A stretch of DNA of 64,000 bases, taken from assembly GCF_003334785.1 (NCBI RefSeq), contig NZ_QOWV01000002.1. One strand, given 5' to 3'. The position numbers were made by a program, and so were the translations under genes. This DNA comes from Escherichia coli. Its GTDB lineage: Bacteria > Pseudomonadota > Gammaproteobacteria > Enterobacterales > Enterobacteriaceae. This document shows, piece by piece, positions 13,053-57,577 of the stretch (position 1 is its first letter; every line of letters begins with the position of its first letter). The notes under the pieces were generated by a model that worked only from the letters and a program-made list of their open reading frames with translations, was not told the origin of the DNA and searched no databases.

Positions 13053-13307
13053 TCACATCTCGATTTCAATATCGCCTTTTGCCCGGCAACAACAGGGCAA
13101 AATTTCCCCCGGCTGAATAAAGGCTAACGGTTCGGCAATCCAGTCAACTTGACCTGCAACCAGGCGTGTGCGACAGGAGCCGCAGTAACCTTCGCGACAC
13201 TGGTACTCAACCGCCACATTGTGGGATTCCAGCGCCGCCAGAAGGGAAGGGTGTTCATCCTGGCACAGCAGTTGTGTGCCAGTGATGCGCAGGGTAACGC
13301 GGGCCAT
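13053..13307 (-). CDS. yfaE: 2Fe-2S ferredoxin associated with ribonucleotide reductase
   Basis: 84-aa ORF with Cys cluster (CREGYCGSC…C), directly downstream of nrdB. Confidence 0.85.
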   Translation of the reverse strand: MARVTLRITGTQLLCQDEHPSLLAALESHNVAVEYQCREGYCGSCRTRLVAGQVDWIAEPLAFIQPGEILPCCCRAKGDIEIEM

Positions 13308-14437
13308 CAGAGCTGGAAGTTACTCAAATCGTCGGTGTCCACTTCCGAGTCAATCTGCCCGACCAGATAAGAACTGACTTCCACTTCCTGCGGAGCAACC
13401 TGCACGTTATCAGACACCAGCCAAGTGTTGATCCACGGGATCGGGTTGGAGCGCGTCTGGAACGGCAGATCCAAACCGACTGCCTGCATACGGATATTGG
13501 TGATGTATTCAACGTACTGGCAGAGAATGTCTTTATTCAGACCAATCATCGAACCGTCGCGGAACAGATAATCCGCCCAGTCTTTCTCCTGTTGAGCTGC
13601 CTGAACAAACAGGTCATAGCACTCCTGCTTACACTCTTCGGCAATTTCCGCCATCTCAGGATCGTCCGCGCCGCTGCGCAGCAGATTCAGCATATGCTGG
13701 GTGCCGGTCAGGTGCAGGGCTTCGTCGCGGGCAATCAGGCGAATAATTTTGGCGTTGCCTTCCATCAATTCGCGTTCTGCAAATGCGAAGGAACAAGCAA
13801 AGCTGACGTAGAAACGAATCGCTTCCAGCGCGTTAACGCTCATCAGGCAGAGATACAGTTTTTTCTTCAGCTCGCGCAGGCTAACGGTCACAGTTTTACC
13901 GTTAACGGTGTGGGTACCTTCGCCCAGCAGATGCCAGTAGCTGGTCATTTCGATCAGCTCATCGTAATAGCTGGAGATCCCTTCCGCACGTTTCTGGATC
14001 TGCTCGTTGGTGACGATATCGTCAAACACAACAGACGGATCGTTAACGATATTACGAATGATATGAGTATAGGAACGGGAATGAATCGTTTCTGAGAACG
14101 CCCAGGTTTCGACCCAGGTTTCCAGTTCCGGAATAGAAATAAGCGGCAATAGCGCCACGTTCGGGCTACGACCCTGAATGGAATCCAGCAGCGTCTGATA
14201 TTTCAGGTTGCTGATAAAGATGTGTTTTTCGTGCTCCGGCAGCGCCTGGTAATCTATACGGTCGCGGGAGACGTCAACTTCTTCCGGACGCCAGAAGAAA
14301 GAGAGCTGCTTTTCGATCAGCTTTTCGAAGATGTCATATTTTTGCTGATCGTAGCGAGCCACGTTGACCGGCTGACCAAAGAACATCGGTTCTTTGAGCT
14401 GATCATTTTTCGTCTGTGAAAAGGTGGTATATGCCAT
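13307..14437 (-). CDS. nrdB: Ribonucleoside-diphosphate reductase 1, beta subunit (R2)
   Basis: ORF 13307..14668 is extended through REP sequence; true start at the ATG at 14437 ([22 protein letters not shown]…); 376 aa. Confidence 0.95.
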
Positions 14438-14460
14438 GAGTGTGTCCTGTTGGGAGTTTA

Positions 14461-14662
<202 letters not shown>

Positions 14663-14670
14663 TCTCAATA

Positions 14671-16956
14671 TCAGATCTTACATGCGCCGCTTTCGCAGCC
14701 ATCGTCCTGGATTGACGGCACCAGATCGTCTTGTGCGTCTTCAGCGCCGTCACGGGTGTTCTGATAATACAGTGTTTTGACCCCGAATTTGTAGGCGGTG
14801 AGCAGGTCTTTCAGCAACTGCTGCATCGGCACTTTTCCTGACGGGAAGCGTGACGGATCGTAGTTGGTGTTGGCAGAGATCGACTGATCGATAAATTTCT
14901 GCATGATACCCACCAGTTGCAGATAACCATCGTTACCCGGCATTTCCCACAGCAGCTCATAGGCGTCGTGCAGGTGCTCGTAGTCCGGCACCACCTGGCG
15001 CAAAATACCGTCTTTCGACGCTTTGATGCTGACGTAACCGCGCGGCGGTTCAATACCGTTAGTGGCGTTAGAGATCTGCGAAGAAGTCTCGGACGGCATC
15101 AGAGCAGAAAGCGTGGAGTTACGCAGACCGTGCGTTTTGATTGACTCACGCAGAGCTTCCCAGTCGTAATGCAGCGGCTCATTAGCGATGGTATCCAGAT
15201 CTTTCTTATAGGTATCGATCGGCAGGATCCCTTTCGCGTAAGTGGTTTCGTTAAACCACGGGCACGCGCCTTGCTCTTTCGCCAGCTCATTAGAGGCTTT
15301 CAGCAGGTAATACTGAATGGCTTCGAAGGTTTTATGCGTCAGGTTGTTGGCGCTGCCGTCGGAGTAGCGTTTACCGTGCTTCGCCAGGTAGTAAGCGAAG
15401 TTGATCACACCAATACCCAGCGTACGACGACCCATCGCTCCACGTTTGGCGGCCGGGATCGGGTAATCCTGATAATCCAGCAGCGCGTCAAGTGCACGAA
15501 CCGCCAGAATTGCCAGCTCTTCCAGTTCATCCAGGTTATTAATTGCGCCCAGGTTGAAAGCAGACAGCGTACACAGCGCGATTTCACCGTTCTCGTCGTT
15601 GACGTCGTTCAGCGGTTTGGTCGGCAGGGCTATCTCCAGGCACAGGTTAGACTGACGCACTGGCGCGATGGCCGGATCAAACGGGCTATGGGTATTGCAG
15701 TGGTCAACGTTCTGAATATAGATACGACCGGTAGACGCACGTTCCTGCATCATCAGCGAGAACAGCTCAACGGCTTTCACACGCTGCTTGCGGATGCTGT
15801 CGTCTTTCTCATATTTGGTATACAGACGTTCAAACTCTTCCTGATCGGCGAAGAACGCGTCGTACAGCCCCGGTACGTCGGACGGGCTGAACAGGGTGAT
15901 ATCTTCACCTTTCAGCAGACGGGTATACATCAGTTTGTTGATTTGTACCCCGTAGTCCATATGACGCACGCGGTTGCCTTCCACACCACGGTTGTTTTTC
16001 AACACCAGCAGGCTTTCCACTTCCAGATGCCACATCGGGTAGAACAGCGTTGCCGCACCGCCGCGCACACCGCCCTGAGAGCAGGATTTCACCGCTGTCT
16101 GGAAATGTTTGTAGAACGGAATGCAGCCGGTATGGAACGCTTCACCACCGCGAATCGGGCTACCCAGCGCACGAATACGCCCGGCGTTGATGCCGATCCC
16201 GGCACGCTGGGAAACGTATTTAACAATCGCGCTGGAGGTGGCGTTGATGGAATCCAGGCTGTCACCGCACTCGATCAGTACGCAGGAGCTGAACTGACGA
16301 GTCGGGGTACGCACGCCGGACATGATTGGCGTCGGCAGCGAAATTTTAAATGTGGAAACCGCGTCGTAAAAACGCTTCACATATTGCAGGCGCGTTTCAC
16401 GCGGGTAGTTCGAGAACAAGCACGCGGCAACTAGAATATAAAGGAACTGGGCGCTCTCATAGATTTCGCCGGTCACGCGGTTCTGTACCAGATATTTGCC
16501 TTCCAGCTGCTTAACGGCAGCATAAGAGAAGGTCATATCACGGTCGTGATCGATAAAGGTGTCCATCTGCTTGAACTCTTCTTCCGTGTAGTCTTCCAGC
16601 AGATGATTATCGTATTTGCCCATCTCGACCATTTTCACCACGTGGTCGTACAGCGCAGGCGGCTCAAACTGGCCGTAGGCTTTTTTACGCAGGTGGAAGA
16701 TCGCCAGGCGCGCGGCGAGATACTGATAATCCGGCGCATCACGGGAGATCAGGTCTGCGGCAGCCTTGATAATGGTTTCGTGGATGTCAGAGGTCTTGAT
16801 ACCGTCATAAAACTGAATGTGGGAGCGCAGCTCGACCTGGGAAATCGAAACGTTATGCAGTCCTTCTGCCGCCCAATCCAGAACGCGATGGATTTTGTCG
16901 AGATTGATGCGCTCTGTGCTACCGTCGCGCTTTGTCACCAGCAGATTCTGATTCAT
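14671..16956 (-). CDS. nrdA: Ribonucleoside-diphosphate reductase 1, alpha subunit (R1)
   Basis: 761-aa ORF with ATP-cone N-terminus ([26 protein letters not shown]…). Confidence 0.97.
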
Positions 16957-17029
16957 GTATGTCGTACCTGTTTTTGGAATTCTTTCCGCAATAGTTTCAT
17001 GCAGACTACCTGTAGTACGGGAAGCTGCT

Positions 17030-17120
17030 TAGAACACTATATATAGGGGGTATGTTTGGGATTCACTGCAAGATAGTGTGAAAATGACCCTCTTGCAAGT
17101 GCATAACTTTGTGGATAACT
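17030..17120 (-). promoter_or_regulatory. nrdAB promoter region: two NrdR-box-like palindromes and a consensus DnaA box
   Basis: acactatatataggg (17034-17048) and cactgcaagatagtgtg (17064-17080) are about 31 bp apart centre to centre; tgtggataa (17110-17118) is the reverse complement of TTATCCACA; all lie 75-165 bp upstream of the nrdA ATG. Confidence 0.5.
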
Positions 17121-17651
17121 CAGGAAGGAAAAAGTGGCTTTCGCGCACCTTAGGTCAGACAAGGTGTCCGGGAAAGTCAATGGGAAGAGAAAAATTTGTT
17201 AAAAATAACTGTTCGGCGATTTCTTGAACGGCATAATAGGTTAGATAAATTGATATAGATGGTTTATTAATCTTTTTGCTAATGATTGCAAAAATTGATC
17301 TAAGCACGAGTCATCACATAATCTGATGTATCAGTTGTGGTCAATATATAAGCGAATGTAAGAGATTGTTGATGGCGAAATGGTTGTTTTCTATTCGGTT
17401 ATTGTTAAATGCTAAGCCATTTTGTTAATTTACCTTATATTATAAGAAAATTATTCATGACTTTAATTTAGTTTAAATATAACTGATATCCCTGAAGGTT
17501 ATTAACTTGAATTATGACGCACTGATATTATTCATCAAATAATAACAAAATAGCCATTGCACCGGGTTGAACAATTTACAAAAGAAAGATATTCCATATC
17601 GTATAATGCGATTAAATACGCCGTCTTATAGAAAATGATGGTTAGATTAAT

Positions 17652-20600
17652 ATGCGGATTATCTTTCTACGCAAGGAGTATTTATCTTTACTCCCGTCAA
17701 TGATTGCATCTCTTTTCTCTGCTAACGGTGTCGCGGCGGTCACTGATTCATGCCAGGGATATGATGTCAAAGCGAGTTGTCAGGCCAGCAGGCAAAGCCT
17801 TTCAGGCATTACGCAGGACTGGAGTATCGCTGATGGGCAATGGCTGGTTTTTTCGGATATGACCAATAACGCCAGCGGTGGGGCCGTATTTTTGCAACAA
17901 GGAGCGGAATTTTCACTATTACCAGAAAATGAAACTGGAATGACTCTGTTTGCCAATAACACCGTTACAGGAGAATATAATAACGGCGGGGCCATATTTG
18001 CTAAAGAAAACTCAACGCTGAATCTTACTGATGTTATTTTTTCCGGTAACGTCGCAGGCGGCTATGGTGGCGCAATCTATTCTTCTGGTACTAACGATAC
18101 TGGTGCCGTCGATTTACGTGTCACTAACGCCATGTTTCGCAATAACATCGCTAATGATGGCAAAGGTGGCGCAATTTATACCATTAATAATGACGTTTAT
18201 TTAAGTGATGTTATTTTTGATAACAACCAGGCATATACATCAACAAGTTACAGTGATGGCGATGGCGGGGCAATCGATGTTACCGATAATAATAGCGACA
18301 GCAAGCATCCTTCAGGTTATACGATAGTAAATAACACTGCCTTTACAAATAACACTGCCGAAGGTTATGGCGGGGCGATATATACCAATAGCGTGACGGC
18401 TCCCTATCTTATTGATATTTCTGTTGATGACAGCTACAGCCAGAACGGAGGCGTGTTAGTCGATGAGAACAATAGCGCAGCAGGCTATGGAGATGGTCCT
18501 TCCTCTGCGGCGGGTGGCTTTATGTATCTCGGCTTAAGTGAAGTTACCTTTGATATTGCCGACGGAAAAACGCTGGTTATTGGCAATACAGAGAATGACG
18601 GAGCTGTTGACTCTATTGCTGGTACCGGGTTAATCACCAAAACAGGTTCCGGCGATCTGGTACTTAATGCAGATAACAATGACTTTACTGGTGAGATGCA
18701 GATTGAAAACGGTGAAGTTACCCTGGGCCGCAGCAACTCCCTGATGAATGTCGGCGATACGCATTGCCAGGACGATCCGCAAGACTGCTACGGTCTGACG
18801 ATAGGGAGTATTGATCAGTATCAGAATCAGGCTGAGCTAAACGTTGGCTCGACCCAACAAACTTTTGTGCACGCATTGACGGGCTTTCAGAATGGCACTT
18901 TAAATATCGATGCTGGTGGCAACGTTACTGTTAATCAGGGCAGTTTTGCTGGCATCATCGAAGGTGCTGGTCAGCTCACCATTGCGCAAAACGGCAGCTA
19001 CGTGCTGGCAGGGGCGCAGTCGATGGCGCTAACCGGCGATATAGTCGTTGATGATGGTGCGGTGCTTTCGCTGGAAGGCGACGCGGCAGATCTTACCGCT
19101 CTCCAGGACGATCCGCAGTCGATCGTGTTAAACGGCGGTGTGCTCGATCTCTCTGATTTCTCCACCTGGCAGAGCGGCACATCATACAACGATGGCCTTG
19201 AAGTCAGTGGCAGCAGCGGAACGGTTATCGGCAGTCAGGATGTGGTAGATCTTGCAGGTGGCGACAATTTGCATATCGGCGGCGACGGGAAAGATGGCGT
19301 CTACGTGGTGGTCGATGCGAGCGACGGGCAGGTAAGTCTGGCAAACAATAATAGTTATTTGGGCACAACACAAATCGCCTCCGGTACGCTGATGGTGAGC
19401 GACAACTCGCAGCTTGGAGATACCCACTATAACCGCCAGGTTATCTTTACCGATAAGCAACAAGAAAGCGTGATGGAGATTACCTCCGACGTTGACACGC
19501 GTTCAGATGCGGCAGGCCACGGACGTGATATTGAAATGCGCGCCGACGGTGAAGTGGCAGTTGATGCGGGGGTAGACACGCAGTGGGGCGCACTGATGGC
19601 TGACAGCAGCGGGCAGCATCAGGATGAGGGTAGCACATTGACTAAAACGGGGGCTGGTACACTGGAGCTGACCGCCAGCGGTACAACGCAGTCGGCGGTA
19701 CGTGTCGAAGAAGGCACCCTGAAAGGTGATGTTGCTGATATCCTTCCTTATGCTTCGTCACTGTGGGTTGGTGATGGGGCAACGTTCGTTACTGGCGCGG
19801 ATCAGGATATTCAGTCAATTGATGCTATTTCCAGCGGCACTATCGACATCAGCGATGGTACGGTTTTGCGCCTGACCGGGCAGGATACTTCCGTCGCCCT
19901 TAATGCCTCACTATTTAACGGCGATGGGACGCTGGTGAATGCCACCGATGGTGTGACGTTGACAGGTGAGCTTAATACCAACCTTGAAACTGACAGCCTG
20001 ACTTATCTTTCCAACGTGACGGTTAATGGCAATCTGACCAATACGTCCGGTGCGGTTAGCCTGCAAAATGGCGTCGCTGGCGATACGCTGACGGTAAACG
20101 GTGATTATACCGGCGGCGGTACGCTACTGCTCGATAGCGAATTAAACGGCGATGACTCGGTAAGCGATCAATTGGTGATGAACGGTAATACTGCTGGCAA
20201 CACAACTGTGGTGGTTAACTCCATTACAGGGATTGGTGAGCCGACATCGACAGGCATTAAAGTGGTTGATTTCGCAGCTGATCCCACGCAGTTTCAAAAC
20301 AATGCGCAGTTCAGTCTGGCAGGCAGCGGCTACGTCAATATGGGAGCGTATGACTACACGCTGGTGGAAGATAACAACGACTGGTATCTGCGATCGCAAG
20401 AAGTAACGCCGCCATCGCCACCTGATCCAGACCCGACTCCCGATCCTGATCCCACGCCGGATCCTGATCCAACACCCGACCCGGAACATACGCCTGCTTA
20501 CCAGCCGGTGTTGAATGCCAAAGTTGGCGGTTATCTCAATAACCTGCGGGCGGCAAATCAGGCGTTTATGATGGAGCGACGCGATCACGCAGGTGGCGAT

Positions 20601-25176: not shown

Positions 25177-32023
<6,847 letters not shown>

Positions 32024-57088: not shown

Positions 57089-57577
57089 TTAGCGAACTAC
57101 CGCGTTGTCAATTTTCTCTTCCGCCTTCCAGACGCGGTACTTCACATCTACATTGTCTGGCGTATACACCACGATCGGCAGCTTGCTGTTGTAACGCAGC
57201 ATTCCAGCATCGCCCAGATACGCGGTGACAAATTTCTTCTCTTTCTTGCCATCCGGGCAGGCCATCATCGTTGAAACCGGGGAACTGACTTTATCAAAGA
57301 CATAATAATCATAGCCCCAGCCTTCCAGCGTTTTGTTTTCCAGCTTCCCGCCGAGACGATGCAAATTGCAATCGACTTCCAGCGTCTGACCGATTAACAG
57401 TTCTACTTTCAGGGTAGATTCATCTTCTTGCGGGGTTAACTGAATCACCTGACGCTTCATCCCTTTTTCAGCTTGTGGATAAGGCGCGATTTTTTCCAGT
57501 GGCTGGACGCTTTCTGCCGCCCAGGCGGAAGTGGTAGCGAAAGCGGCAAACAATACTGCAGGTAGAATGGTCTTCAT
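57089..57577 (-). CDS. eco: Ecotin (periplasmic serine protease inhibitor)
   Basis: ORF 57089..57598; start set at [20 protein letters not shown] (57577); 162 aa. Confidence 0.93.

Follow-up and report, generated by a model that had tools for sequence, protein, structure and literature searches.

The promoter of the nrdAB operon in Escherichia coli carries a long-standing annotation of two NrdR boxes, and the locus raises the question of which NrdR boxes in front of nrdA form the operator and how they are placed relative to the promoter and the DnaA boxes. This question was addressed in a 64,000-nucleotide stretch of DNA (the window), which is part of the E. coli chromosome: the 801 bases around the nrdA promoter were 100% identical to many E. 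coli genomes, and the region was found in 5426 of 5426 complete E. coli genomes. A sequence-only reading had flagged the interval 17030-17120 as a pair of NrdR boxes and a DnaA box upstream of nrdAB. We found that the region very probably is the core control region of the nrdAB-yfaE operon, comprising a sigma-70 promoter, an upstream double DnaA box, an NrdR operator made of box 1 and box 2, and an ancestral weak box 0.

Organization of the nrdA promoter region

The location proposed upstream of nrdAB was borne out. The genes nrdA, nrdB and yfaE are all on the minus strand with the nrdA ATG at 16956, so that the interval is the nrdA promoter, read on the minus strand. The neighbour on the other side of this promoter is yfaL, a plus-strand gene with its start at 17652. 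The NrdR and DnaA boxes of the nrdAB promoter are already known features. The genes and control elements are as follows.

13053..13307, minus strand: yfaE, ferredoxin-like, 84 aa, last gene of the operon (open reading frame; annotated in a related strain)
13307..14437, minus strand: nrdB, class Ia ribonucleotide reductase beta subunit, 376 aa, same operon as nrdA (translation; RefSeq annotation)
14671..16956, minus strand: nrdA, class Ia ribonucleotide reductase alpha subunit, 761 aa (open reading frame and translation; RefSeq annotation of an identical region)
16957..17066, minus strand: nrdA 5' untranslated leader (placed by literature statements and hexamer positions)
17003..17018, minus strand: NrdR box 2, GTACTACAGGTAGTCT, with a central AG; downstream partner, core 5/6, outside 17030-17120
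17034..17049, minus strand: NrdR box 1, CCCCTATATATAGTGT, a TATATA-centred near-perfect 16-bp palindrome; anchor box, core 6/6
17066..17081, minus strand: NrdR box 0, TCACACTATCTTGCAG (minus strand), centred on CTATCTTG and overlapping the -10; classical upstream box, core 5/6
17070..17075, minus strand: putative -10 hexamer TATCTT, inside NrdR box 0 (sequence reading and conservation)
17093..17098, minus strand: putative -35 hexamer TTGCAA, with a 17-bp spacer to TATCTT (sequence reading)
17098..17106, minus strand: DnaA box 2, TTATGCACT, 3 bp downstream of DnaA box 1 (in the ChIP-seq table)
17110..17118, minus strand: DnaA box 1, perfect consensus TTATCCACA, upstream half of the double box (exact match)

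A simple sigma-70 scan with a threshold of 9/12 did not report the nrdA promoter, and reported none in Klebsiella either; TTGCAA-17-TATCTT scores 8/12, under this threshold, and was therefore missed. The two hexamers are accordingly given here as a probable reading of the sequence that is backed by conservation, and not as the prediction of a program. From their positions, the transcription start would fall at about 17063-17069, and positions relative to +1 are therefore approximate. A 45-bp inverted repeat has been described for the cell-cycle control of nrd. An inverted-repeat search yielded nothing better than weak candidates, namely a palindrome of 17 nt (71%) with TTGCAA at its centre and a pair of 11-nt arms at 17241/17293, and the described repeat could not be identified among them.

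Further upstream, ATTGAC (17176-17181, minus strand) lies about 110 nt before the start. In the 79-species alignment described below, ATTGAC(A) was nearly invariant in both promoter types (columns T47-C51) and was usually preceded by a T-tract. No convincing -10 was found after this motif. Upstream activator sites have been described for nrd, and ATTGAC(A) could belong to them.

Several other observations concern the surroundings of the promoter. The NrdB protein start (MAYTTFSQ) lies 77 codons into the listed open reading frame. The spacer between nrdA and nrdB (14438-14670, 233 bp) gives, when translated, the peptide pattern typical of REP elements; in strain 504239 it is 145 bp long, that is, 88 bp shorter, which indicates that the number of REP units varies between strains. 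In E. coli 23CRST009 (NZ_AP045766.1), the match to 16900-17700 is split into two pieces over 1577 bp with an annotated IS1A transposase between them, indicating an IS1 insertion between nrdA and yfaL. RefSeq also annotates a 47-aa "protein YpaB" at 17084-17227 on the plus strand, opposite to nrdA, whose frame overlaps the -35 hexamer as well as the two DnaA boxes. This frame is interrupted by a stop at codon 18 in E. albertii, and its conservation therefore probably reflects the promoter and not a protein.

NrdR boxes and their binding partners

The NrdR boxes were compared by a six-position core, C4 A6 A8 T9 T11 G13. Box 1 (plus strand, ACACTATATATAGGGG; minus strand, CCCCTATATATAGTGT) matches all six positions, while box 0 deviates by a C and not an A at position 6, and box 2 by a G at position 9. 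Box 0 and box 1 are 32 bp apart from centre to centre with a 16-bp linker, and box 1 and box 2 are 31 bp apart with a 15-bp linker. The three boxes are thus in phase directly upstream of nrdA, 47-125 bp from the ATG, and they show the features of NrdR operators: partly palindromic 16-bp boxes, linkers of 15-16 bp, and a place in the promoter or leader of a ribonucleotide reductase operon. The two palindromes of the sequence-only reading were described as TATATA-centred and about three helical turns apart; the spacing held, and the TATATA centre applies to box 1 only, as the interval 17030-17120 contains no second TATATA.

The six-position core was not enriched in the 64-kb window (16 sites against about 17 expected), and 29% of Markov simulations contained some pair of a 6/6 box with a box scoring at least 5/6. 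Because the core occurs at chance frequency, it was replaced by a full 16-position weight matrix, for which only the four boxes of E. coli nrdHIEF and nrdDG (oligonucleotides in PMC12176259) were used and which is independent of nrdAB. Among the 63,985 positions scored, box 1 (17034-17049) ranked first with a score of 18.2, box 2 (17003-17018) second with 11.3, and box 0 (17066-17081) fifteenth with 7.6. Three in-phase sites within the top 15, spaced by 31 and 32 bp at a ribonucleotide reductase promoter, are not a chance occurrence. The weight-matrix scan that had been suggested as a check thus supported the flagged boxes, although the core alone did not. The nrdR gene itself was absent from the 64-kb window; E. 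coli encodes nrdR elsewhere in its genome.

The published nrdA sites could be placed exactly on the window, the double DnaA box described below as well as the NrdR oligonucleotides of Rozman Grinberg et al. (FEBS J 2025, PMC12176259), in which the classical upstream box of nrdAB was renamed "box 0". Their box 0+1 oligonucleotide corresponds to 17029-17086 and their 57-nt box 1+2 oligonucleotide to 16998-17054. In microscale thermophoresis with ATP+dATP, E. coli NrdR bound box 1+2 with a KD of 113 nM and barely bound box 0+1, with a KD >6 µM (PMC12176259). Mutation of box 1 abolished NrdR binding in EMSA, and a 185-bp EMSA was insensitive to mutation of box 0 (PMC12176259). This preference for box 1+2 was measured in vitro, by binding to 57-58 bp oligonucleotides and by EMSA. 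The DNA-bound form of NrdR is a single dATP/ATP tetramer on two boxes about three helical turns apart (PMC12176259), and the DNA is bent by NrdR at each of these boxes. When ATP is the only nucleotide, NrdR assembles into oligomers that do not bind, and the filaments are this non-binding ATP form (PMC12176259).

The operator of that study is identical in sequence to the window, with two 16-bp boxes, a 15-bp linker and a box 2 with a central AG, and of these two boxes only box 1 falls within 17030-17120. What the interval contains is instead the classical pair, annotated by Rodionov and Gelfand (2005) and Torrents et al. (2007) as these works are cited later in PMC12176259, with a 16-bp linker and the upstream box over the -10. 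The flagged NrdR pair was therefore real as an annotation but weakly bound in vitro, and the high-affinity partner, box 2, had escaped the sequence-only reading, as had DnaA box 2 (17098-17106). The long-standing annotation of box 0 and box 1 has been superseded for E. coli by the binding data, and the true partner lies just beyond the flagged interval. In a 2025 preprint by a different group, the classical NrdR pairs are still the ones listed.

The double DnaA box

The perfect DnaA box in reverse orientation at 17110-17118 was confirmed as an exact TTATCCACA on the minus strand, and as nrdA is also on the minus strand, the "reverse" box points in the direction of transcription. Perfect TTATCCACA 9-mers occur three times in the 64-kb window, against 0.47 expected. 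The one at nrdA is alone in having a partner box at 2-3 bp in the same orientation (spacing 3 bp), and the site shows the features of a double DnaA box, that is, a 9-mer matching TTATNCACA, at best TTATCCACA, and at a distance of 2-3 bp a second box with the same orientation. The partner, TTATGCACT, has two mismatches to TTATCCACA and one to TTATNCACA, and the -35 hexamer begins with its last T, so that the two elements overlap by one base. The other two perfect 9-mers, at 30454-30462 and 57474-57482 on the minus strand, lie inside open reading frames of 1539 aa and 169 aa; they have no partner at 2-3 bp and are therefore unlikely to be bound, by the logic of the published ChIP-seq work.

The 23-mer gTTATCCACAaagTTATGCACTt is listed letter for letter as the nrdA "double DnaA box" under a ChIP-seq peak, and DnaA occupies this double box in vivo (PMC11317965). 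The coupling to DnaA suggested earlier was thus well founded, but it involves a cooperative double box and not a single site. At such a box, cooperative binding of DnaA modulates the recruitment of the polymerase according to DnaA concentration and ATP/ADP state. Like the double boxes of that study (Microbiology 2024; polA, purH, nrdD, datA and DARS1, for example), nrdA combines a consensus TTATCCACA with a degenerate 9-mer that points the same way at a distance of 3 bp. The consensus box is upstream of its partner at nrdA, whereas it is the downstream one at most sites listed in PMC11317965. Control of nrdA by DnaA has been described as acting through two nucleotide-indifferent boxes and one DnaA-ATP-specific box; DnaA-ADP or low DnaA-ATP activates nrdA, and high DnaA-ATP represses it via the extra ATP-specific site (PMC8203912). 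This third box could not be placed in the nrdA promoter sequence.

A copy of the nrdA upstream segment (window 17081-17210, minus strand) was also present in phages of the P1/P7 family and in 217 E. coli plasmid records. Besides the double DnaA box and the -35 hexamer, the mobile copy includes some 80 nt of the sequence upstream of them; examples are phage P7 (AF503408.1, L084; 2450-2600), with 97.7% identity to the window over 86 nt, and the P1-like plasmid pAPSLC-111K (L082; 1495-1600), and the copies other than that of P7 showed 80-93% identity. The homology breaks off precisely at the start of box 0 and the -10 hexamer. The P7 sequence continues with TTTCTACATATTGTGG, which has an NrdR core of 6/6 and a score of 14.3, above that of E. 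coli box 2, but without a partner box. The P7 "upf91.6" is the YpaB frame in the phage copy. P7 and the plasmid both have, some 270 nt farther downstream, a conserved hydrophobic open reading frame of 45 aa, and a PHROG search with this peptide gave no match.

Conservation across Enterobacterales and a possible origin of the operator

We compared the nrdA loci of 80 species, for which the 270 nt upstream of the ATG were aligned for 79 sequences including the window; Salmonella was absent from this set. Across the 79 Enterobacterales, box 1 was invariant at C4, A6, A8, T9, T11 and G13, and box 0 at C4, A8, T9, T11 and G13. Position 6 of box 0 was never A in any of the 79 species. The linker between box 0 and box 1 was 16 bp in almost all species and 15 bp in five.

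The promoters fell into two types. Type A comprises E. coli, E. albertii, a Pseudocitrobacter MAG, Yersinia, Serratia, Hafnia, Rahnella, Dickeya, Brenneria, Sodalis and others, and has TTATCCACA upstream, a second DnaA box adjoining the -35 TTGCAA, and the -10 TATCTT inside box 0. In 24 distant type A species, identity to E. coli of at least 90% was found in the TTATCCACA of DnaA box 1, in part of DnaA box 2 and the -35 (CTTGC.A), in CACTATCTTG at the -10, in the core of box 1 and in the ACTA of NrdR box 2. The upstream DnaA boxes are 3 bp apart in Escherichia and Pseudocitrobacter and 12-13 bp apart in Yersinia, Serratia, Rahnella and other type A species (L023 and L047, for example). The two spacings differ by about one helical turn, so that the phase is kept and the tight "double box" is created.

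Type B comprises most other Enterobacteriaceae, the Erwiniaceae and Pectobacterium (Citrobacter, Enterobacter, Klebsiella, Raoultella, Kosakonia, Pantoea, Erwinia, Pectobacterium and others) and has no upstream DnaA box. Instead, TTATCCACAgagTTAgTCACA begins directly after box 1 in the leader and is followed by an inverted TGTGGATAA (L014, 1040-1165, for example). A near-invariant TAnAAT just upstream of box 0 probably serves as the -10 in this type. The box 0+1 fragment of the Klebsiella, Citrobacter or Enterobacter type reads ACTCACCATATAGCGT-16 bp-CCCCTACATATAGTAT. Type B promoters share with E. coli the module of box 0, 16-bp linker and box 1 and presumably also control by DnaA boxes; they differ in that the DnaA boxes are in the leader and not upstream, box 2 is lacking, box 0 is stronger and the presumed -10 lies upstream. 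With the independent matrix, the median score of box 0 was 10.5 in type B and 7.0 in type A, and that of the box 2 position was -8.2 in type B and -3.4 in type A. Matches to box 2 were found by score in E. coli (11.3) and, weaker, in Rouxiella (7.5), E. albertii (7.1), Sodalis (6.7) and the Pseudocitrobacter MAG (6.5), and in no others. Outside Escherichia, the conserved part of box 2 was only its left half, ACTA, and box 2 therefore appears to be essentially confined to Escherichia. The two types are patchy within families, as seen for Escherichia versus Citrobacter and for Dickeya versus Pectobacterium, which hints at promoter replacement.

The conservation of box 0 has to be weighed against the binding data from E. 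coli. One alternative is a three-box array, in which NrdR nucleates on box 1+2 and extends cooperatively to the weak box 0, thereby combining a downstream roadblock with occlusion of the -10. The helical phase of three boxes that all rank within the top 15 sites, the conservation of box 0 and the ability of NrdR to form higher oligomers and filaments (PMC12176259) are consistent with such an array; however, the published complex on DNA is the single tetramer on two boxes, the filaments belong to the non-binding ATP form, and the 185-bp EMSA did not respond to the box 0 mutation (PMC12176259), and we consider the array unlikely.

Less probable still is that the classical pair of box 0 (17066-17081) and box 1 (17034-17049) is the E. 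coli operator, with NrdR over the -10 and the start excluding RNA polymerase. The KD >6 µM for this pair against 113 nM for box 1+2 (PMC12176259) and the score of box 0 below that of box 2 (7.6 against 11.3) speak against it, as does the residue at position 6, which is never A in the 79 species, whereas a C6A change in box 0 raised NrdR affinity 10-fold in a 2026 preprint from the group of PMC12176259. What keeps the classical pair under discussion, besides the 2005 and 2007 annotations as later cited, is the invariance of five core positions of box 0 and of the linker, together with the fact that type B species, which lack box 2, still conserve box 0; if their -10 is the TAnAAT upstream of box 0, promoter constraint cannot explain the conservation there. 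Mutation of the upstream box in Salmonella also raised nrdAB transcription, a mutation that touches the promoter as well. Finally, the palindromes might be chance AT-rich sequence or hairpins of the nrdA leader RNA and not protein sites, a reading that can draw on the chance frequency of the six-position core and on the 29% of simulations with a pair, but to which the full-matrix ranks 1, 2 and 15 of in-phase boxes, the core invariance across 79 species and the direct NrdR binding (PMC12176259) leave practically no room, and RNA structure as the cause was rejected because the leader folded with z = +0.24 (119 of 200 shuffles folded as well) and matched no Rfam family at E <= 1.

We therefore return to an operator made of box 1 and box 2. 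In the mechanism that we propose, a sigma-70 promoter (-35 17098..17093, -10 17075..17070) would be flanked on both sides by regulator sites. On the upstream side, the double DnaA box (17118..17110, 17106..17098) adjoins the -35, where, as published, DnaA-ADP or low DnaA-ATP helps RNA polymerase; control by DnaA, activating or repressing, ties dNTP synthesis to the replication-initiation cycle. On the downstream side, the operator would be anchored on box 1 (17049..17034), with box 2 (17018..17003) as its high-affinity partner in E. coli. Three helical turns between the boxes would place both on one face of the helix. Judging from the positions, the complex on box 1+2 would lie at about +18 to +64, and repression from there would block promoter escape or early elongation and not polymerase binding. 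As NrdR with ATP alone does not bind, the operon would then be derepressed.

Box 0 (17081..17066) may be the ancestral partner of box 1, kept by most Enterobacterales and, in the E. coli-type promoter, merged with the -10 and weak. Box 0+1 is probably the working pair in most Enterobacterales, and its conservation across species explains why this pair was predicted in 2005. A weak, -10-merged box 0 with a compensating box 2 in Escherichia would reconcile this conservation with the E. coli binding data. We tentatively suggest, as a possibility that falls short of an even chance, that the nrdAB operator has shifted: from an ancestral box 0+1, which is still a good pair where the presumed -10 lies upstream of box 0, box 0 became fused with the -10 in the E. 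coli-type promoter and weakened, box 2 arose only in Escherichia, and box 0 still contributes in vivo as a third, in-phase and deliberately weak site, given that its position 6 is never A despite the 10-fold gain in affinity with C6A.

As a textbook regulatory region that was recognised from raw sequence, the nrdAB region serves as a positive control for a genome scan. Its DnaA sites link dNTP supply to replication initiation, and its NrdR sites link dNTP supply to the dATP/ATP ratio. The superseded box 0 is universally conserved among the species compared, whereas the new box 2 is lineage-specific. If the operator shift is true, the published view of box 0 as unrecognised would be a simplification drawn from in vitro work and would not extend to other Enterobacterales.
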